Part shown: positions 6,016-18,514 of the stretch, piece after piece
Position numbering within the stretch: the stretch's first letter is position 1
Layout of the letters: every line of letters starts with the position of its first letter
Source of the DNA: a virus
Taxonomy: Duplodnaviria; Caudoviricetes
Direction: 5' to 3' (one strand)
Virus record (IMG/VR): IMGVR_UViG_3300044805_000038
Coordinates: 1-40,454 of that record
Length of the DNA stretch: 40,454 nt
Notes under the pieces: generated by a model
Databases searched by the model: none
The model's input: the letters and a program-made list of their open reading frames with translations, nothing else
Told to the model about the DNA's origin: nothing
Translations under genes and position numbers: made by a program

Positions 6016-6455
6016 ACACCAGCATCACCTTCGCTGTCCATGGGCTGCCAGCACCTCAAGGTTCAAAACGGCATATGGGCAACGGGATCATGGTGGAGTC
6101 AAGCAAAAAGGTCAAACCATGGCGGCAGGATACAAAATACGCCGCACTGGAAGCCAAGCCAGCCGACTGGGATGCATCTGGTCCCATGTCTTTGTCCGTT
6201 GTCTTTCGGTTCCAAAGACCAGCCGCTCATTACCTGAAAAATGGTCTACGCCCGACCGCCCCCTGCTACGTCACCTCAGCCCGCAATGGGGACCTTGACA
6301 AGCTCCTGCGGTCTACCTGCGATGCCATGACTGGCATCCTCTTCGATGATGACCGCCAAGTCGTCAGCATCAACGCCATTAAGCGTTACTGCAACACCAA
6401 CGAACAACCTGGCGCCATCATCACGCTCACTGCGCTAAACCTCACAGACCAATGA
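6012..6455 (+). CDS. rusA: RusA-like Holliday junction resolvase
   Basis: PAPQGSKR, DLDKLLRSTCDAMTG..DDRQVV motifs. Confidence 0.88.
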   Translation: MNTSITFAVHGLPAPQGSKRHMGNGIMVESSKKVKPWRQDTKYAALEAKPADWDASGPMSLSVVFRFQRPAAHYLKNGLRPTAPCYVTSARNGDLDKLLRSTCDAMTGILFDDDRQVVSINAIKRYCNTNEQPGAIITLTALNLTDQ

Positions 6456-7153
6456 CCTTTCCAAATCTTGCGGGCGTCATCACCAAAGATGATGTATTCC
6501 GCAAAGGCACAGGATCCTACGCCGCAGATTACGTTTCTTGGGCACGGATCGCTAATCACCTGCATACCAGCGCCCCCGGCTGGATCATGCAAATCAGAAC
6601 AGCACCGCATGGTGAAAACCATGTCTGGCGCAGTCCTGATGGCTCTGGTTATTTGACCGTCTACTTCCTGCATACAGACGGCACAGAGACACCAGATTTT
6701 GTTTATGCCATCACCGACAATCGCAATGTTCCGATTGCGTGGGACAAGATCAATAGCCGCATGATTTGCGATAGCCATCGCCGTGCGCTTTGTGCTGCTG
6801 CTGCATTTTTCTTTAGCCTTGGCTACGAGCTATGGGCACGAGAGGAGATTGAAGAGGCAAAGGCTGACAGCCCGTTACCAACTGTTGAGCAGCCCGCTGC
6901 TGCCAAAGCAAAGCCCGTTGCCGCAGCTACAAAGAAGGAAGAGCCTCCTGAGTTGTCGTCAGAGGAACTCCCGATCACTGACGGTGATCTAAAAACGATC
7001 CGTGACTTGCTGGCAGCAGAACCTGTTGTCAAAAGGAACAAAATCATTAAGGAGTTCAACAAGGAATTTGCCGTGCCTGAGGGTGATCTCATGACTGCCC
7101 ACATCACGCTTCCTAAACACCTGCGCTACATCCAGGAACGGCTATCCACCTAA
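6452..7153 (+). CDS. Sak-like single-strand annealing protein (DUF1071-like)
   Basis: YVSWA..., AITDNRN, RRALCAAAA..LGYELWARE motifs; upstream of ssb. Confidence 0.65.
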   Translation: MTFPNLAGVITKDDVFRKGTGSYAADYVSWARIANHLHTSAPGWIMQIRTAPHGENHVWRSPDGSGYLTVYFLHTDGTETPDFVYAITDNRNVPIAWDKINSRMICDSHRRALCAAAAFFFSLGYELWAREEIEEAKADSPLPTVEQPAAAKAKPVAAATKKEEPPELSSEELPITDGDLKTIRDLLAAEPVVKRNKIIKEFNKEFAVPEGDLMTAHITLPKHLRYIQERLST

Positions 7154-7731: not shown

Positions 7732-8658
7732 ATGTCGGACCCTCTGCGCGATTACCTAAACCAGATCGGCAAAATCCCGCTGCTAACCGCTGCCGAGGAG
7801 ATTGAGCTGGGTCATGCCGTGCAGCGGATGGTGGCACTCAGATCAAAGCAGGAACACAGCAGAGAGGAGCTGCGGCACATCAAAGCAGGCATCCGGGCAA
7901 AAAAACGGATGATCCAAGGGAACCTGCGGCTGGTGATTGGCATCGCGTCAAAGTACAAGCACCTTGCAAACCGCGTCACTCTGCACGACCTAGTGCAGGA
8001 AGGCAATATTGGTTTGATCCGTGCGGTTGAGCTGTTTGATCCAGAGCGCGGCTACAAGTTTTCGACGTATGCGTACTGGTGGATCCGTCAGGGCATCATG
8101 CGTTCAATTCAAGTACAGGACCGGATCATTAAGTTGCCGTCAGGCGCTAGCGACATCCTGCGCAAGGTCAAAACTTACATGGTTGAGCATCAGGACCTTT
8201 ACGGTGAGCCGCCTTCCATTGAGCAATGCGCTGCACATGCTGGCGTTGCACCTAATACCCTACGGGATTACATGCATAGCGCACAGGATGCTGTGAGCCT
8301 TGACGCAAAAGCAAGAACGCAAAATGAGGATGGCAGCTCAATCCTTGATTTAATAGCTGCCGAAAATGAAAAGCCTGAGGATGATTTAATTTTGACAACC
8401 AAGGTGCAAGCCGTTCAACAAGCACTTTCGTATATGTGCGAAAACAGCAAAATGATTCTGAGTATGCGTTATGGGCTAGACGGTGAGGAACCTTGCTCCA
8501 AGCGTGAGATTGCCCGAAGGATAGGTATCGCGCAGGACACTACCGCTAGGTTGCTTGTTAACGCAGAGCGGCAACTAAGGCTGATCCTAAAAGAGGGACC
8601 GCCGGGAAAGTATCAACCACAGAAACACAGCTCCAGCTTGATCTGGGGTTGGGGGTAA
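7732..8658 (+). CDS. RpoD-family (cyanobacterial group-2-like) RNA polymerase sigma factor
   Basis: YLNQIGKIPLLTAAEEIEL, NLRLV, DLVQEGNIGLIRAVELFDPERGYKFSTYAYWWIRQ; no region 1.1. Confidence 0.93.
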   Translation: MSDPLRDYLNQIGKIPLLTAAEEIELGHAVQRMVALRSKQEHSREELRHIKAGIRAKKRMIQGNLRLVIGIASKYKHLANRVTLHDLVQEGNIGLIRAVELFDPERGYKFSTYAYWWIRQGIMRSIQVQDRIIKLPSGASDILRKVKTYMVEHQDLYGEPPSIEQCAAHAGVAPNTLRDYMHSAQDAVSLDAKARTQNEDGSSILDLIAAENEKPEDDLILTTKVQAVQQALSYMCENSKMILSMRYGLDGEEPCSKREIARRIGIAQDTTARLLVNAERQLRLILKEGPPGKYQPQKHSSSLIWGWG

Positions 8659-9459: not shown

Positions 9460-9522
9460 TGGTTTTAGGCATATCAATCACGGTAGCGAGGGAAGCTAAC
9501 CTTGGCTTGTCGCGCAGTTTTT

Positions 9523-10749
9523 ATGGCTTCCATCTCCAAGGCTGGTCTCTCGCTAATTAAAGAGTTTGAGGGGTGCAGACTGACCTCTTATACCTGCGCT
9601 GCTGGAGTGCTGACCATTGGCTATGGCAGCACTGGTCCGCACGTTACGCCAGGCAAAACCATTACCCAAGCCGAAGCTGATGCGCTGCTGCTAAAAGATG
9701 TGGCGCGGTTTGAAAAGGGCGTGGATGACCTGATTACTGTGCCGCTGAAGCAGTGCCAGTTTGATGCACTGGTCAGCTTTGCCTTCAACTGCGGCAATGG
9801 CGCACTGGAGGAATCAACACTCCGCAAGCGGCTAAACGCAGGCGAGGACCCGAACACCGTCGCCAAAGAGGAGCTGCCGCGTTGGACAAATAAGGGCTTG
9901 GCAGGTTTGGTGCGTCGCCGGACGGCTGAGGTCAATATGTTCTGCTCCGGTGGCGGTGCGGCAACAGCAGCAAAGACCACGGACCTGACCGCTACCAATA
10001 ACACCCTGCTAAAAAAGGAGCCGGTGCCTAGCTCTGAGCTGGAAGACAACGAAAAATCGGAGATCGACAAGGGCAAGGCGTTTAAGGGTGCCAAGGTCCT
10101 AGCTACCCAAGACAACCACACCCAAGTTGAACTGCCTTACGGGCTTGGGACTTGGTGGCTCTTTGATGGGCACTGGGCTGAGCTGGATGGCAAAGAGGAC
10201 AAGCCCGAGCCTGCCGGTGATGGCAGCGTCAACCTTGCCGTGCCGTACTTCAACCAAGTTGACAACTACACGCAAGCCCAGCGGACCTGCAATAGTTCAA
10301 GCTGTGCCATGTGCTTGGCGTTCCTAATGCCAGGCAAAATCAAGGGCGATGATGATTACTTGCGCAAGCTGCTAACAGGCGGCTATGGCGACACCACCGA
10401 CCACGGCGCTCAAGGCAGACTGCTGGCGTCGTATGGCTTGAAGTCAACTTGGCACACCAACCTCGGCTTTGATGACCTAGAGAAGGAAATCAAGGCAGGT
10501 CGCCCGGTGGTGATTGGCATCCTGCATCGCGGCAGCCTTGCCGCACCGACAGGCGGTCACATGCTGGTAGTACGTGGCATTACTGCCAAGGGTGACTTCA
10601 TCGTCAATGACCCCTACGGCAGCGTCAACGATGGCTACAGCGGTCCTGTAACCAACGGCAATCAGGCTGTTTATAGCCGCGCCATGCTGCAAAAGCGGTG
10701 GCTGCCTGAGGGTGCCAAATCGGGCTGGGGCAGGAAGTTCCAGCCCTAG
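9523..10749 (+). CDS. Endolysin: GH24 lysozyme plus C39-like peptidase domain
   Basis: LIKEFEGCRLTSY..LTIGYGST, QFDALVSFAFN.G, GLVRRRTAE; C-terminal VPYFNQ..CNSSSCAM..GHMLVV.G..VNDPYG. Confidence 0.88.
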   Translation: MASISKAGLSLIKEFEGCRLTSYTCAAGVLTIGYGSTGPHVTPGKTITQAEADALLLKDVARFEKGVDDLITVPLKQCQFDALVSFAFNCGNGALEESTLRKRLNAGEDPNTVAKEELPRWTNKGLAGLVRRRTAEVNMFCSGGGAATAAKTTDLTATNNTLLKKEPVPSSELEDNEKSEIDKGKAFKGAKVLATQDNHTQVELPYGLGTWWLFDGHWAELDGKEDKPEPAGDGSVNLAVPYFNQVDNYTQAQRTCNSSSCAMCLAFLMPGKIKGDDDYLRKLLTGGYGDTTDHGAQGRLLASYGLKSTWHTNLGFDDLEKEIKAGRPVVIGILHRGSLAAPTGGHMLVVRGITAKGDFIVNDPYGSVNDGYSGPVTNGNQAVYSRAMLQKRWLPEGAKSGWGRKFQP

Positions 10750-12917: not shown

Positions 12918-13054
12918 TAACCCTTACCTTGGCCGCGCATCTTTTTCCTGCCGTGATTAGGCAAGCTGTGTTGACCTTGGCCTTGCCGAGATTTTTTCGG
13001 CTTGCCTGGTACGTGCTCGATGCGAGCGGTGCCGGTCTTCGACTTCACTGCCAT
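12917..13054 (-). CDS. Small basic protein (45 aa)
   Basis: Manual: MAVKSKTGTARIEHVPGKPKKSRQGQGQHSLPNHGRKKMRGQGKG; TAATG coupling to the next gene. Confidence 0.65.
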   Translation of the reverse strand: MAVKSKTGTARIEHVPGKPKKSRQGQGQHSLPNHGRKKMRGQGKG

Positions 13055-13365
13055 GGCACACCAGCAGCCTGCGTCGGATGCCGCTGTTCATCGAGCTGGT
13101 GCTGCAGGGCGCCCTCGATCTCGGTCACCTTCTCAGCGCCGAAGTTGTCCTTCACCCAGCCGATCACCATCTCCTCGGTGAGATCCGCAAAAGGGATCAG
13201 CTTGTCGGGGCGCTCGAAGCCGACAGATCCATAGGCCGAGCTGGCATAGGTGCCATCTTCAGCCGAGAGCGTCCAGTGTGCCGTCAGAACGAATCCATCG
13301 GCGGTCTCCCGCTCAAGATTCGCGATCCGCCAGGTGAAGGTGGTGCTAGGGGTAGCGTTGGGCAT
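13045..13365 (-). CDS. Conserved phage protein usually found next to tail fibres (possible fibre assembly factor)
   Basis: FTWRIANLERETADGFV..AHW..IPFADLTEEMVIGWVK..GVPW pattern. Confidence 0.65.
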   Translation of the reverse strand: MPNATPSTTFTWRIANLERETADGFVLTAHWTLSAEDGTYASSAYGSVGFERPDKLIPFADLTEEMVIGWVKDNFGAEKVTEIEGALQHQLDEQRHPTQAAGVPWQ

Positions 13366-13392
13366 GGTAATGCGAGCCGTGGCGTCAATCTA

Positions 13393-14247
13393 TCAAATCT
13401 CCGGCAGTTCGTACTCCTTTGTGGTATTGCAATAATGCTTAAAAATTACCTCGCTGGTGTTGCCAGCCCAAGCCGCCACCTGAGGCACAGGGATGCCAGC
13501 CTCGATCCAATGGCTGATCGCAGTGTGTCTGCAGTCATACGGACGGTAGTGGTGTGAGATGAGGCCGACCTGATGCAGTGGTTGCAGCTTCTTGCGGAAG
13601 TAACTCTGAAATGCCAGCCGATCCCAAGGGAACAGATATTCGGACTCTTGTGGCAATGCGTCGAGGATGGCCTGGCACTTGCCGTTCAATGGCACCCATC
13701 GCTTTTTGTTGGTCTTGGTGCTGTCCTTCAAGCCATGGGTAAGCGTCCAGTTCTGATGCACCAAGATCTTGTTGTCTTTAATATCAACCCATCGAAGTGC
13801 GCGGACCTCTCCGGTTCGCATGGCTGTCTGCAACATGAACTCGGTATAGGCCGACCAGTTGACGGTGCGATAGGTCAGCTTTGCCTCTAGGGCAGCCAGC
13901 ACCAAGCCGATCTCGTTGCGCGGGATGACGATGATCTCCTCGTCGCGTTGAGGTGCCTTGGGCATCTTGAAGCTGGCAAGTGGATTCCGCTCCAAATAGC
14001 CAACGTCTTCTTGTGCCGCCCACTTGTACATGGTCTTCGTGTACATCGCAACGCGACGTGAAGACAGCACAGGCTTCTGCCCCAATACCCAGATCATGAC
14101 CTGGCGTGCCTGTTGCAGGTCTTGCACTGGGCAGCGGCCTAGCCACTTGGTTACTTGGCGGTAATCAGATGTGAGACTGGTTGGGCAAAGCGAGATAGAA
14201 CGCTCCGTGAGGAAGGCGTTCCATAACTCGCTGACCGTTAATGCCAC
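13393..14247 (-). CDS. Tyrosine recombinase (284 aa; core-binding plus catalytic domains, no arm-binding domain)
   Basis: TAMRTGEVRALRW (Arg), STKT (Lys), YDCRHT (HxxR variant), WAGNT, KHY (Tyr). Confidence 0.9.
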   Translation of the reverse strand: MALTVSELWNAFLTERSISLCPTSLTSDYRQVTKWLGRCPVQDLQQARQVMIWVLGQKPVLSSRRVAMYTKTMYKWAAQEDVGYLERNPLASFKMPKAPQRDEEIIVIPRNEIGLVLAALEAKLTYRTVNWSAYTEFMLQTAMRTGEVRALRWVDIKDNKILVHQNWTLTHGLKDSTKTNKKRWVPLNGKCQAILDALPQESEYLFPWDRLAFQSYFRKKLQPLHQVGLISHHYRPYDCRHTAISHWIEAGIPVPQVAAWAGNTSEVIFKHYCNTTKEYELPEI

Positions 14248-14366
14248 TAGGTAACTATTTGGGGTGGCAAGTCAAGGCACTGCCGGATCTCCGCCTTGCG
14301 CTGTTCGATGCGCTCCCGGCGCTCTGGGGCAAAATCTTTGGTGAGTTCCGAGAAGGAGCGCGTCAT
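14247..14366 (-). CDS. 39-aa ORF resembling the N-terminus of HigA-type antitoxins, without the HTH
   Basis: Manual: MTRSFSELTKDFAPERRERIEQRKAEIRQCLDLPPQIVT; stop overlaps the recombinase GTG. Confidence 0.5.
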   Translation of the reverse strand: MTRSFSELTKDFAPERRERIEQRKAEIRQCLDLPPQIVT

Positions 14367-14369
14367 GGG

Positions 14370-16843
14370 TAGGGAAGGTGAATACTGGGCTTTGCTAGGT
14401 CATGCAATACCCGGATTCGCACCCATCTTGTTCTTCTATCCATTCTGCGAACAGTCCTAGCTGATGAGGAATGGCAACATCAATCGGCTTGCAGCGGCCA
14501 CTGATAAAAACATGGTCCTTGCCGATGGCTTCGCGCTTGGCATTGAGGGTCCGCTCCAGCCTCACCACTTGCTCAAACAACTCGGGCTTCTCGCGCCTAA
14601 GGGTGATCCATTGATCGGTGGTCTTGTACGGGCAAAACCAACAGGATGACTTTGGCGGCTGGGGCAAACCAGCTTCGCGCACGACTTGCAAGCAATCGCT
14701 ACGGCTTAGCCCCAGTTCGATCAACGGATACGCGGACGCATACCCATCGGATTCCCTTGATGGCGTAGCTCGGTGTGGCTCATCCGTGCTGATGCCTTTA
14801 CCCAAGACACAGCCTGGCGCATTGGCCTTGATCCATTTAGCAATAGGCTTGATCTTGAACTCAACAGTGCAGTTTCTGTTGCCAGGTGCGCCGTTGCTCA
14901 TGCGAACGGGAATGTCGATAGAGCGGACTGGACGGTGCAGTTCTTCGTACAAATCCACGACGGTTCCGTCGCGGCGTTTGCGCTGAACATCAACCCAACT
15001 AATCCCGTGAGCATCCGCAAAGGGCTTGAGGACATCAGCCACGTATTGAATAGTGTCTGGCGATTCGGATCGCTCGCCGACGTTGGCAAAAACAAAAGTG
15101 CGGTAGGGGATGGTCCCACTGGCGGCCAGCACAAGGCAAGCCGTTGATTGAACACCACCACCGCAAGAAAAGACGAAGTTATCCACAGTAGGGAGTAGGG
15201 CTAAGAGGTCTAGGCGATACCAGCATCAGCGAGACGCTGTTCGAGAACCTCAATCCGCTCCATGGCTTCCTGCAGCGCCTTGACTGCCTTCATGTAGAGG
15301 ATGGACTGGTTAATGCCTTTGGTGACTTCGCCAGTTTCGTTGCCGTCTTTATCACGGTCCGGCGTATCAAAAACAAGACCGGGGCAAACCTGTTCCAGCT
15401 CCTGGGCAATGGGACCAATTTGACGATGAGTTTCGTGACCAGTCTCCGCCCTGAAATTCCAGTTGCGAATCTGAATTGCTTTTAGATCATCCCACTGCGA
15501 ACTTGCATCGACAATATTCTCTTTCAGCTTTTGGTCGGAAAGAGTTGTGTAACTGCCGTTAGTATTCTGGACGTTTCCATTTGTGTAGACAATAAATACA
15601 TCGGTGCCATCAGTTGTTGTCGTTGCGCTTCTACGACCTACAAAAAGTGCGTCTGATGTACCTGCGCCTGTGGATGATGCCGACGTCAGTCCATTTCCTG
15701 CAGCATAGAAAAACGCACGGCCTGCATTATTAATTCGCTGCGCCTCAGTAGGTGATGCCGACCCGTCGCGTGTAACGGAGAACACTAGGCGGCCCGGCAT
15801 GTCGTTAGTGCCGGGGGTGCCGTCTACGGCTGCGTTGATACTCGCTGCGCGTACAAATTTAGTTCCGTCTGCGCCATTAAATGTTACAGAACCGATTGTG
15901 CTGCCATTTATAAGCGCGGCATAGTCGGACGAATGGCCCTGTCGGCAAAGCGCAATATCGGCAACTCTCTCGTTAACTGTGTTAGAAGAACTGATTACAG
16001 CCAGGCCACCGTATGCTCCGTTGTTATCGGTAACTTTAATCTGTTGTCCTTGTGACCAGTTACTGCCAAATCTGTTGTCAGGAATGTTGTACCAACTAGA
16101 CGTGCCAACTAAGAGGCGTCCCGAGCTGTCGATGCGGGCGCGTTCGTTTGCGAGCCCGTTTGTTGCAAACGCAAGGTACTCACCACCTCCAACCGCCAAA
16201 AGTGTGCCGCTACCGCTGGCGTAACCGGGGGCGACGTAGAAGTTTGACAGCGTGCCATCTGTTACTTGAAGGCGTTGCGTGGGGCTCGTAGTGCCAATCC
16301 CTACGTTGCCTGCCGAGGTGACAACCAGCTTGTCGGAGTAGCTGCTTCCAGGCGTCTGAATTGAAAACACGCCATTTGTATTACCGATAAACGTTTGGCT
16401 GGACGAGTCTTTTAGCGCGACAAAGACGCCGGTTGTACCTGTGCGCTCAAATACTGTTGGTGTGCTAGCCGTTCCAGACACGTGAAGTGTATTACTAGGG
16501 CTACTAGTCCCCAGACCTAAGCGGCCACTGGAGTCCAGGCGCATGCGCTCGCTTTCTGACCCTGCATTTGTAGTAATAAACCTCAACGCACCAGAATTAT
16601 CTGCTCCAGCACGTTCGGCACCTATATAAGCAATGCGGTTTGTGGCTTGCCAAAACGCCAATCTGCCTACATCGCTGGTAGTTGTTCTATTGCCTTCAAT
16701 GTTTACTGCACCAATTAAGGCACCTTTGAAAGTGCCTTGCGTGACGTTTGCATCGGACCATTTGTCAGGAGAGGAGCTTCCAACTCCAACGTTTCCACTC
16801 GCATCAACAAACAACCGCCCAGTGCCATTAGTTGAGATGGCTA
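14370..16843. repeat. Series of TAG-N9-CTA inverted-repeat sites (candidate recombinase core sites)
   Basis: Perfect sites at 15189-15203, 16097-16111, 16289-16303, 16505-16519 and 16829-16843; one-mismatch sites at 14370-14384 and 15773-15787. Confidence 0.65.
14395..15186 (-). CDS. PAPS-reductase-like adenine nucleotide alpha-hydrolase (Cys-rich)
   Basis: PP-loop-like SCGGGVQS, RNCTVEFKIKPI, YPLIE, PPKSSCWFCPY, C-terminal CESGYC. Confidence 0.8.
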   Translation of the reverse strand: MDNFVFSCGGGVQSTACLVLAASGTIPYRTFVFANVGERSESPDTIQYVADVLKPFADAHGISWVDVQRKRRDGTVVDLYEELHRPVRSIDIPVRMSNGAPGNRNCTVEFKIKPIAKWIKANAPGCVLGKGISTDEPHRATPSRESDGYASAYPLIELGLSRSDCLQVVREAGLPQPPKSSCWFCPYKTTDQWITLRREKPELFEQVVRLERTLNAKREAIGKDHVFISGRCKPIDVAIPHQLGLFAEWIEEQDGCESGYCMT

Positions 16844-17408
16844 CTTGGTCTGCACCGGGAGAATAAATACCAGTATTTGCATCGCCGGTGAAGGTCAGTG
16901 TGGGCGCTGCAGCAGATCCAAGGGGATAGCTAAAACGCTCAGAGCTGGTCCACGCATCGGTGGAATCAACCCAGTTGATGGTTTTATCGGTCGTACCTTT
17001 CAGTGTGATGCCGCCACCGTCTGCGGTTACATCGGTAGGGGTAGTTACATCGCCAAGGATAATATTTTTGTCTTCAATAACAAGGTTGGTGGTGTTGATA
17101 TTGGTGGTCGTACCGTTAACAGTCAGGTCGCCTGCAATCGTTACCGCGCCAGCAGAATCAATCAGCAGACGCTGCGTGCCGCCGGTGGTCACCGCAACCT
17201 GATCGGCGCCGGGGGAATAGATGCCGGTATTGGGGTCACCGTCGAACGCGATGCCGGGCAGGGCAGCCGTGCCGAGGCTGGCGTTCTTCATCACGTTGGC
17301 GATGCTGACCTTCTTGGTCACGTCGCTGGTGACATCAACAATCGGCAGCACATCCGTGTTGACCGGATCTGTGTAAGCCGTCAGGTCAGTGATCTTGGTG
17401 GTGGCCAT
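15210..17408 (-). CDS. Long modular tail fibre with C-terminal intramolecular chaperone (peptidase S74-like)
   Basis: Repeats NTGIYSPGADQVA and R(L/I)DSSGRL/GNVGIGT; SDQKLKENI..GPIAQELEQVCPGLV..coiled coil. Confidence 0.88.
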   Translation of the reverse strand: MATTKITDLTAYTDPVNTDVLPIVDVTSDVTKKVSIANVMKNASLGTAALPGIAFDGDPNTGIYSPGADQVAVTTGGTQRLLIDSAGAVTIAGDLTVNGTTTNINTTNLVIEDKNIILGDVTTPTDVTADGGGITLKGTTDKTINWVDSTDAWTSSERFSYPLGSAAAPTLTFTGDANTGIYSPGADQVAISTNGTGRLFVDASGNVGVGSSSPDKWSDANVTQGTFKGALIGAVNIEGNRTTTSDVGRLAFWQATNRIAYIGAERAGADNSGALRFITTNAGSESERMRLDSSGRLGLGTSSPSNTLHVSGTASTPTVFERTGTTGVFVALKDSSSQTFIGNTNGVFSIQTPGSSYSDKLVVTSAGNVGIGTTSPTQRLQVTDGTLSNFYVAPGYASGSGTLLAVGGGEYLAFATNGLANERARIDSSGRLLVGTSSWYNIPDNRFGSNWSQGQQIKVTDNNGAYGGLAVISSSNTVNERVADIALCRQGHSSDYAALINGSTIGSVTFNGADGTKFVRAASINAAVDGTPGTNDMPGRLVFSVTRDGSASPTEAQRINNAGRAFFYAAGNGLTSASSTGAGTSDALFVGRRSATTTTDGTDVFIVYTNGNVQNTNGSYTTLSDQKLKENIVDASSQWDDLKAIQIRNWNFRAETGHETHRQIGPIAQELEQVCPGLVFDTPDRDKDGNETGEVTKGINQSILYMKAVKALQEAMERIEVLEQRLADAGIA

Positions 17409-17443
17409 CGTTGATGCTCCGGTAGGTTGAGTTTAGGCGCGGC

Positions 17444-18514
17444 TCAAGTCTTAATACAAGCCAGCAGCGCGATGTTTCTGGGTCGTGCCTCGGTGTCACC
17501 GCTGTTGTTGACCGTGATGCCGGTGGTTACGGTCGTCGTTGCCCGAGGTGATGTGCCTTGGTTGGCGGCCACGGCGGTGTTGCCAGAAGTGCCAGTGTTC
17601 CAAGCGCCGTTGTTGTACTCAACGGTGTGCGCGTGACCCGGATCGGTAATGCCGTGCGTGTGAGCCAAGTTGGCGCTGGCTTGCGCGGAGCCGAACGTTC
17701 GACCCGTGTCAATGCCGCGTCCGTCGTCCCAGCCACGGGCAAACTCACCACGCAGATCTGGCACGTTGAAGGTGGTGGAGCCATCACCCGAGCCAAATGT
17801 AGTGCCAATGGCGCTAAACAATGTGGCGTAAGTTGTGCGGCTGATTGCTGCACCGTTGGCCTTCAAGTAGCCGGTTGGTGCGGTATTGCGTGCGCTCCAG
17901 ATGATGGTGCCAGCAGGAGTCATGTCCTGTGGCGTGATGGATGCAACCTGCGTATCGACATAGCCCTTGTTGGCGGCCATGTTTGTCGTGCTGGGGTTGC
18001 CCACCAGCGTCAGGTTGCCGGTCATCGTCCCACCAGCTTTGGCTAGGTAGGTGCTGGCTGCAGTGGTGATCTGTAGGTAACGGGCGTCCGCAAAGGTTTG
18101 GTCAATGCCGTCAGGGTCAACGCGCACCCAGTTGGTGCCGTCCCACATCTTCAGTTCGTCTGGCGTCTGCGCTGTGTCTTGCCACAACTGACCCAGTGCC
18201 GGACTGCTAGGTGCCGTGCCTGATGGGCTGGTGATGATCGACGCGCCGGGCTGGAACGAGACGATGGTGAACGTGGCGCCATTCCAAACCTTGAGCAACG
18301 GCGGGTTGCTGCTGGTATCGACCCAAAGTTGACCGTTGGCAGGGGTGGAAGGCTGCGTCGGTCCAACGCTTGTGCCAAGCAAACCCAGTGCCAGTGCAAG
18401 GTTGTTGGCTGTGATGCGTCGAGTCTGGGAGCCGCTGACGCTGGAAAATGGCAGGAGATCCGCGCTGGCAATCGCTGTTGCGGCGGGTAACTGGGAGATC
18501 CGTAAGCCAGCCAT
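17444..18514 (-). CDS. Tail fibre with tail-collar domain
   Basis: GQLWVDTS repeats; PAGTII..APTGYLKANGAAISRTTYATLFSAIGTTFGSGDGSTTFNVPDLRGEFARG; EARPRNIALLACIK. Confidence 0.88.
   Translation of the reverse strand: MAGLRISQLPAATAIASADLLPFSSVSGSQTRRITANNLALALGLLGTSVGPTQPSTPANGQLWVDTSSNPPLLKVWNGATFTIVSFQPGASIITSPSGTAPSSPALGQLWQDTAQTPDELKMWDGTNWVRVDPDGIDQTFADARYLQITTAASTYLAKAGGTMTGNLTLVGNPSTTNMAANKGYVDTQVASITPQDMTPAGTIIWSARNTAPTGYLKANGAAISRTTYATLFSAIGTTFGSGDGSTTFNVPDLRGEFARGWDDGRGIDTGRTFGSAQASANLAHTHGITDPGHAHTVEYNNGAWNTGTSGNTAVAANQGTSPRATTTVTTGITVNNSGDTEARPRNIALLACIKT

Follow-up and report, generated by a model that had tools for sequence, protein, structure and literature searches.

Why should a tail-fibre gene be punctuated, in frame, by short symmetric DNA sites that recur on the approach to a tyrosine recombinase gene? 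The question is raised by IMG/VR record IMGVR_UViG_3300044805_000038 (the window, taken at its full 40,454 bp), a complete virus genome with terminal repeats from a lambda-like siphovirus that encodes a sigma-70 factor (7732–8658). It contains seven TAG(T)-N7-(A)CTA sites, all in the same orientation: five in the frame of the fibre gene and two around a cargo gene (Table 1). Comparison with related phages supports the view that these sites are real DNA-level elements serving as ordered addresses for the exchange of fibre modules and cargo genes between phage genomes. The genome comparisons themselves show that the order of the sites is fixed, that spacers are specific to position, that crossovers fall at the spacer and that the reading frame is kept, and also that the sites are shared across phage families and their arms linked with one enzyme family. 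The arrays are likely to be a natural counterpart of heterospecific-site cassette exchange by a recombinase; the neighbouring enzyme, which lacks an arm-binding domain, would act in trans. L-numbers denote compared phage loci or contigs and X-numbers public sequencing runs; the runs were examined as assembled contigs, with the identical tables of X5 and X6 counted once and contig joints of the class 'between: not known' with short sides excluded.

Ordered addresses and crossover points

The site coordinates listed in the original prediction, which had singled out TAG-N9-CTA words at the fibre-module junctions, all proved correct on rechecking, and the enrichment that it expected is found: the window has nine such words against 2.71 expected, a number reached by none of 100 shuffles, and five of the nine fall within 15189–16843 (1.65 kb). 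Synonymous-codon shuffling of the fibre gene gives a mean of 0.26–0.31 copies and at least four copies in 2–4 of 50,000 shuffles. The four perfect in-gene copies share one codon phase and draw on codons that are indeed uncommon in the structural genes (GTA, 33 of 369 Val codons; TTA and CTA, 60 of 448 Leu codons), while the protein repeats QVAVTTG and NVGVGSS lack the motif, as had been observed. The possibility that the protein sequence forces the motif is excluded by the synonymous shuffles together with cultured phages that have the same peptides and no sites. The copy described as degenerate (S5) is a true member of the series, its position being the commonest perfect site among relatives, and a seventh site (S8), beyond the PAPS-reductase-like gene, had been overlooked. 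The main weight nevertheless rests on relatives, because the motif was picked after the fact.

Across the best 80 of 105 IMG/VR loci picked by their recombinase, motif density over the 2.5 kb that precede the recombinase gene is 0.8–2.1 per kb, and downstream it is at most 0.25. Each array position has a 7-bp spacer of its own, S1–S5 lying in frame and S6–S10 in non-coding DNA, and identical arms flank more than 30 different spacers, whether the DNA is coding or not and also in arrays that are unrelated. Of 736 distinct adjacent pairs, 682 follow the rank order, while another 23 share a rank and 31 descend, mostly within repeated fibre units; 1008 site calls in 293 loci are forward against 22 reverse. 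The modules in between are hypervariable (alleles per distinct module: S2–S3, 19/19; S3–S4, 35/35; S4–S5, 35/36), and the length of every in-gene module is a multiple of 3. Where S4 motifs are defined by protein sequence, the top codon reaches 81–99% inside the site against 32–67% at five equally conserved residues just upstream; the S5 Leu codon is CTA in 25 and TTA in 25 of 54 cases, the base before the site being free and those inside it fixed. A motif-blind ranking of 11-mers found between unlike flanks places dyads in 10 of the top 12 positions, against a background of 2.7%.

Some relatives carry more than one series. Consecutive fibre paralogues, each with its own S-series, place identical addresses as direct repeats in L232, L179/L180, L097, L168 and L073, where deletion or intragenomic exchange is possible. 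One long fibre region contains the S2–S5 series twice in L164/L165, L195/L196, L219 and L110, as expected from unequal exchange or re-insertion, and in L229 an address typical of non-fibre arrays lies 21 bp beyond S8, which suggests that the address pools of fibre and non-fibre arrays are connected.

Breaks in identity between relatives map to the 15-mers and, within them, to the spacer. Ends of near-identical tracts lie at sites in 91 of 234 cases against a background of 9.4%; L033 and L035 differ solely in the S3–S4 module, and contigs from public runs end or turn foreign at S1–S6 and S8. A crossover map was drawn with the spacer left unconstrained, from pairs of loci that are not independent events. 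Mismatch in the 90 pairs with the same upstream side is 0% in the left arm, 0.3% in the spacer, 10% in the right arm and 30% in the right flank; for the 65 pairs with the same downstream side it is 51% in the left flank, 9.2% in the left arm, 0.9% in the spacer, 5.8% in the right arm and 2.9% in the right flank. The arms, which mostly move with their own module, vary about ten times as much as the spacer, and identity beyond the spacer is no longer in recombinant than in unrelated pairs (quantiles 0.45 and 0.47). At 188 intergenic matches the arms mismatch in 19.3% and the 7-bp spacer in 1.9%, with sharp edges. Tolerant inverted arms around a strict core of 7 bp give the picture of a tyrosine recombinase overlap, as in lambda Int.

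Fifty near-identical modules were found in new surroundings, 44 with both addresses kept and six slipped to a related address; seven of the 50 are common to enzyme-bearing and enzyme-less phages. Two readings of the unlike spacers had been offered at the outset: the 44 modules that kept their address pair argue for the spacer as an address limiting exchange to the like junction, and the low spacer mismatch in recombinant pairs (0.3–0.9%) disfavours an enzyme that tolerates unmatched spacers. Ten distinct empty slots, about half of which share descent, keep two addresses overlapping at a 13-bp period. The proposed exchange of fibre modules is thus upheld by swap points at the sites, but it was drawn too narrowly, cargo genes being slots too.

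The statement that silent inverted cassettes are absent holds for the window and fails for one related lineage. In L286 (240–1800) and L057 (1–170) a headless fibre tip (S3 to S6b) is inverted between the active fibre end and the recombinase gene. The recombinase side is common to both, the inverted S3 adjoins the enzyme and the differing tips diverge at the edge of the S3 spacer, so that the arrangement is a possible invertible variant. A search for further inverted arrangements gave nine matches, of which the L057 contig was the only one, with no lineage shown in both orientations.

The recombinase family and its arrays

The window protein is predicted to belong to the tyrosine recombinase superfamily from its PF00589 match above cut-off, its catalytic residues and its fold; it also matches phrog_1. 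The catalytic set is read as R144, K178/K181, Y237 (for His), R240, N263 and Y272. R144, K178, R240 and Y272 are invariant, as are Tyr for His-II and Asn for His/Trp-III, in 16 divergent members. A model of the relative P0121 (alignment A2; predicted local distance difference test, pLDDT, 83) matches the folds of Tn1549 Int(82–397) and lambda Int(75–356), with a Foldseek E value of 1e-11 to Tn1549 Int; the IntI structure 2a3v ranks 32nd in this search. Modelling the window enzyme itself from the shallow alignment A1 gave a poor structure (pLDDT 52), which was not used. No NCBIfam IntI family matches, and XerC/XerD score 24–26 bits where the cut-offs exceed 329.

Members of the family, about 284 amino acids (aa) long, group tightly, with profile scores of 293–482 bits against at most 137 bits for integrases of 350–400 aa. 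The lack of an arm-binding domain in this late-unit protein is confirmed by the profile, which aligns from residue ~80–100 of the 350–400 aa relatives, and by the match of the fold to arm-less constructs. The 255 members with context form 18 clusters at 75% identity, and the closest cultured relative of the window enzyme is in Synechococcus phage S-LBS1 (81% identity); L288–L290, at 23–24% identity, were set aside as unrelated. The family occurs in one of 301 host-family genomes, many of them incomplete assemblies, and there on a short phage-like contig; in the genome_contigs collection it is found only on four phage-like contigs of metagenome-assembled genomes. On this comparative evidence the enzyme appears to have no other visible job than the proposed exchange at the sites.

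Family members 60–67% identical to that of the window lie on other backbones, next to genes without fibre homology and to the same arms with new spacers (L306/L307, L311–L318, L329–L342 and L366). In L306 the last site stands directly before the recombinase start, as in the relatives of the window, and the array is on the opposite strand. L366 (8850–14700) has twelve dyads in 6 kb, comprising a fibre with S1, S3, S4 and S5, a DUF7936 gene, a second series and a convergent recombinase; eight dyads lie between the recombinase and DUF7936. In L368 (10621–11592) a photosystem II D1 gene (phrog_182) is found between the recombinase and a dyad array.

An arm-blind scan of 64 loci without fibre or DUF7936 homology (256 arms by 7 spacings, counting distinct spacers) places TAGT-N7 first, with 20 distinct spacers against 2.96 expected, and 388 kb of control phage DNA has no TAGT-N7 dyad. 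At least three dyads at spacing 7 are present in 36 of 50 dereplicated recombinase loci, against 1–4 loci at spacings 5, 6, 8 and 9; the figures for the 22 non-fibre loci are 11 against 1–2 at other spacings. In a tree of 50 representatives, fibre-type arrays alternate with other arrays four times or more. In a 4-mer dyad scan of the P0121 clade alone TAGT-N7 was not first (1 observed, 0.31 expected); most sites of that clade carry a mismatch in one arm, and cassettes in common had been masked.

The sites cross phage families. Among 15 cultured-phage records examined of 85 with a fibre match, the same spacers occur in the podoviruses WH11-B, S-CBP3, S-CBP4 and DSL-LC07 and in the siphoviruses S-LBS1, S-H1 and KBS-S-2A. 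S-RIP1 and S-EIV1 have degenerate sites, and S-H34, RN05-S, S-SRM01, S-SBP1 and HTVC120P have the same peptides and no sites. In S-CBP1, whose fibre is L295, S6 alone is perfect and the in-frame sites are 3–5 mismatches off with the peptides unchanged; its lineage seems to be out of the in-frame exchange pool. Only S-LBS1, whose fibre carries S2d, S3, S4, S5 and S6b, has the recombinase. S4 occurs in one of the 301 host-family genomes, and a host reservoir of sites is rejected.

Mechanism, alternatives and related systems

In the proposed mechanism the recombinase would bind the shared TAG(T)/(A)CTA arms and cleave at the spacer edges, with strand exchange across the 7-bp spacer. Because identical spacers would be needed, site Sn should recombine chiefly with Sn of another genome. 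A single crossover would replace everything downstream and a double crossover one slot, and unlike spacers within one genome would spare direct repeats from deletion. The enzyme may act in trans on any co-infecting phage that bears sites: exchange needs two genomes per cell, so that a single enzyme donor would suffice, and the sites of the enzyme-less majority would thereby be explained. In keeping with this, the seven moved modules noted above are common to phages with and without the gene, and run X12 contains haplotypes of both kinds. The likely benefit is combinatorial variation of the putative host-recognition fibre. We also favour, if only cautiously, a wider proposal: phages of different families on picocyanobacteria would share an exchange standard, by which in-frame fibre domains and cargo move slot by slot between co-infecting genomes and which can be re-wired for inversion. 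Its elements would be a public-good recombinase carried by a minority and a 15-bp site with 30 or more 7-bp addresses, all mutually orthogonal.

A number of observations weigh against cassette exchange by this enzyme. About 80% of site-bearing phages lack the recombinase gene. None of 80 fibre-picked loci carries it and 73 of them have a called site; a scan for S5, estimated to cover ~660 stretches, gave 64 informative loci among the 123 listed, 12 with the recombinase; and none of ten whole records, three of them at least 90% complete, has a PF00589 match, with the window genome positive as control, the family profile likewise finding no match in five of the ten. The expected co-occurrence of motif and recombinase stands in part, the same arms being found beside divergent members and the gene in only 12 of the 64 informative S5-picked loci. 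The original prediction had also staked itself on the motif being scarcer in phages without the recombinase; to the letter, these counts go against it, and cassette exchange survives only if the enzyme acts in trans. In the gene-less haplotype of run X12 the recombinase gene is replaced by 31 letters at a joint (13368/14265) that is not a site. The arms are only 3–4 bp, those of Cre and Xer being much longer. The right edge of the crossover is not clean, position 11 (the first base past the spacer) differing in 9 of the 65 non-independent same-downstream pairs, and codon bias also reaches beyond S5 for a few codons. No more than 23 of the 45 most promiscuous 11-mers fall in dyads, the rest being mostly site flanks, and flanking codons are partly shared. 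In raw counts the permuted-arm decoys TGAT and TTGA come up often as well, being commoner words, and the controls that are matched are those for spacing alone. Tract ends at sites are only threefold enriched in non-fibre arrays (23 of 262 against 2.8%), and the most divergent clade with context (L287, L305 and L308; 55%) lacks dyads in the 6 kb to each side of the gene. The recombinases of this clade sit among replication genes near a serine recombinase.

An alternative is that the 15-mers are frozen homology linkers, between which modules swap by homologous or illegitimate recombination (through single-strand annealing proteins such as Sak-like ones, or template switching), on the model put forward for T-even fibre motifs and PeSL cassettes, the recombinase being a passenger in a variable patch. 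Besides the many phages without the enzyme, the window encodes a weak Sak-like protein (6452–7153), the in-gene sites fall in conserved peptides with more shared codons nearby, and TAG doubles as the stop codon at many intergenic sites. Such linkers predict no dyad, however, yet the arms recur with more than 30 spacers across settings; a frozen linker has no reason for constant ends around a changing middle, whereas a binding protein does, and the candidate that recurs is the recombinase. The strict core of 7 bp with tolerant arms is far below the minimal segment of 23–27 bp cited for Red-beta (PMC3945230), crossovers stay out of the flanking homology, and the empty slots, in which two addresses overlap, cannot be read as stop linkers or as peptide loops. 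Nor do the sites coincide with expression signals: 13300–17500 has no sigma-70 promoter-like site, and none of its four terminator-like sites is at a junction. We regard this explanation as unlikely.

Somewhat less probable again is that the sites are truly site-specific and served by another catalyst, either a tyrosine recombinase of the host or a phage factor that has escaped recognition, for example DUF7936, while the neighbouring recombinase is linked for reasons of history. All the site-level evidence fits any enzyme with a 7-bp overlap, sites persist without the recombinase gene, DUF7936 borders most fibre-type arrays, and host XerC/D acting on mobile sites in pdif modules provides a precedent (PMC9455709). 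A functional lead for DUF7936 was sought and none was found. Divergent members of one family nevertheless adjoin independent arrays built on identical arms, DUF7936 is missing from the non-fibre arrays (the loci having been selected for its absence), and matches to the dyad are rare in one Synechococcus assembly (2, where the reversed control has 37). Very improbable, in our view, is a lysogeny integrase surrounded by regulator operators or unrelated marks. The PF00589 and phrog_1 matches and the published label of S-LBS1 gene A12 point that way (PMC6157547); the enzyme, however, lacks the arm-binding domain of its nearest relatives of 350–400 aa, is confined among hosts to the few contigs described above, and belongs in S-LBS1 to a phage for which that report records no observed integration. 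An operator, moreover, needs neither an invariant spacer nor coincidence with crossovers. Cassette exchange by the neighbouring enzyme thus remains the reading that we favour: swaps do occur at the sites, as foreseen, and comparative genomics points to this enzyme as the probable one to cut them.

The usual account of mosaicism in fibre genes and small-gene islands is homologous or chance recombination. T-even fibres reportedly recombine at conserved motifs, with homology-driven swap points. Engineered cassette exchange with heterospecific lox or FRT sites combines shared arms with incompatible spacers and proceeds by slot-wise double exchange; by comparison alone, the arrays have shared arms, distinct spacers and exchange limited to like spacers, and they would be a natural counterpart with far shorter arms and at least ten successive addresses. 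The dif consensus describes 28-bp XerC/XerD sites, and conservation here is confined to 15 bp. The pdif modules of Acinetobacter plasmids resemble the arrays in being site-bounded, with a recombinase that is not module-encoded and a route through cointegrate and resolution, but they use host XerC/D and dif-like sites and move whole genes only (PMC9455709), whereas here a phage enzyme would act on 15-bp symmetric-arm sites in fixed order to move in-frame protein modules. Promoter early stem-loop (PeSL) cassettes, like T-even fibres, share with the arrays short conserved stretches that bound hypervariable segments or small genes as swap points. They are homology-driven and have promoters with stem-loops (PMC2839356), while the present sites have no promoter or terminator and five lie inside a reading frame; both differ from the arrays, which have a strict 7-bp core in a shared dyad, a linked recombinase family and crossovers that are not spread through homology.

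The Rin shufflon of Bifidobacterium prophages (PMC6109161) likewise has an arm-less phage tyrosine recombinase by a receptor-binding gene, an in-frame site and variable C-termini. It is described with one repeated asymmetric 11-bp site and silent cassettes inverted within one genome, in contrast to a spacer for each slot, direct sites, no silent reservoir in the window and exchange between genomes. The identical inverted sites around silent cassettes that characterize invertase shufflons (Rin, Rci, Gin/Cin/Min) are absent from the window, the inverted tip of L286/L057 being the exception. Integrons and, in phages, clusters of attC sites lacking integrases (CALINs) offer a cassette array with a tyrosine recombinase at one end, and functional attC arrays without a neighbouring integrase exist in phages (PMC9892861). 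The present arrays differ in having no attC-like hairpin (merely two of the seven window sites fold better than shuffles, and an Rfam search of the sites gave no structured-RNA match), no GTTRRRY boxes and no attI, in cassettes that are not freely reordered and in spacers that must match.

Flexible phage modules have been described without a site-specific mechanism (PMC7468147), and cyanophage inversion uses repeats of 400–700 nt (bioRxiv 10.64898/2026.02.14.705889). No description of an address-coded site system was found in the literature searched, chiefly the main texts of open-access papers. From the comparisons, the arrays are real and widespread and probably constitute a new kind of site-specific diversification system, lacking a defining feature of each of Rin, pdif and integrons. 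If so, a dedicated population-wide mechanism with defined sites would cross the boundary between siphoviruses and podoviruses. S-LBS1 A12, which directly follows a site-bearing fibre gene, was published as a lysogeny marker, with the sites unmentioned in the accessible part of the report (PMC6157547); this gene would then not be such a marker for cyanophages. The old question of targeted module boundaries becomes testable with one enzyme, 15-bp substrates and the cultured phages S-LBS1, S-CBP3 and S-CBP4, and in-frame 15-bp sites with dozens of orthogonal spacers could be useful for domain shuffling and multiplex cassette exchange.

Layout of the locus

Table 1. Features of the fibre, cargo and recombinase region (ORF, open reading frame).
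Feature	Position	Strand	Basis
Modular fibre gene, 732 aa	15210..17408	-	ORF; PHROG tail fibre families; PF13884 at residues 624–679
Site S1, in frame, spacer CATCTCA	16829..16843	-	Motif scan and relatives
Site S2, in frame, spacer TCTGGGG	16505..16519	-	Motif scan and relatives
Site S3, in frame, spacer GATTGGC	16289..16303	-	Motif scan and relatives
Site S4, in frame, spacer TGGCACG	16097..16111	-	Motif scan and relatives
Site S5, in frame, spacer GTTCTCC, degenerate right arm in window	15773..15787	-	Relatives
Site S6, non-coding, 6 nt past fibre stop, spacer CCTACTC	15189..15203	-	Motif scan and relatives
PAPS-reductase-like cargo gene, 263 aa, S6–S8 slot	14395..15186	-	phrog_424, E 5e-35
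Site S8, non-coding, spacer CACCTTC, one mismatch in left arm	14370..14384	-	Relatives
39-aa ORF separating S8 from recombinase	14247..14366	-	ORF
Predicted tyrosine recombinase, 284 aa, without arm-binding domain	13393..14247	-	PF00589; alignments; residues
DUF7936 gene	13045..13365	-	PF25590

On the minus strand the order is fibre, PAPS-reductase-like gene, 39-aa ORF, recombinase and DUF7936. The fibre has a constant N-terminus, five site-bounded modules and an S74 intramolecular chaperone at the C-terminus, and its repeat units resemble in sequence the Bdellovibrio MAT fibre proteins (chains 8ond and 8oml), which are mosaic and of S74 type as well (PMC10769870). The S1–S2 module is 99–100% identical to L109/L110, with identity ending at 16519 (S2). 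A contig from run X14 aligns over 16123–16303 and halts at the S3 edge, loose contig ends from public runs lie at 16095–16097, beside S4, and at 14386, beside S8, and cargo contigs from runs X9 and X12 align as far as 15203–15204 (S6). L001 is 99.3% identical to the window over 13205–14381 and unrelated past S8. The cargo protein has no tblastn match in the 80 recombinase-picked loci. The stretch of the 39-aa ORF sits before DUF7936 in relatives without the recombinase (e.g. L086, L087 and L093), and DUF7936 is the usual right-hand border of fibre-type arrays on siphovirus and other backbones, with the recombinase present or absent.

In the constant N-terminal part of the fibre gene (16924–17275) tract edges recur at fixed points that are not dyads, and ordinary mosaicism acts there too. 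Elsewhere in the window, 9502–10749 encodes a lysozyme joined to a C39-like peptidase domain.

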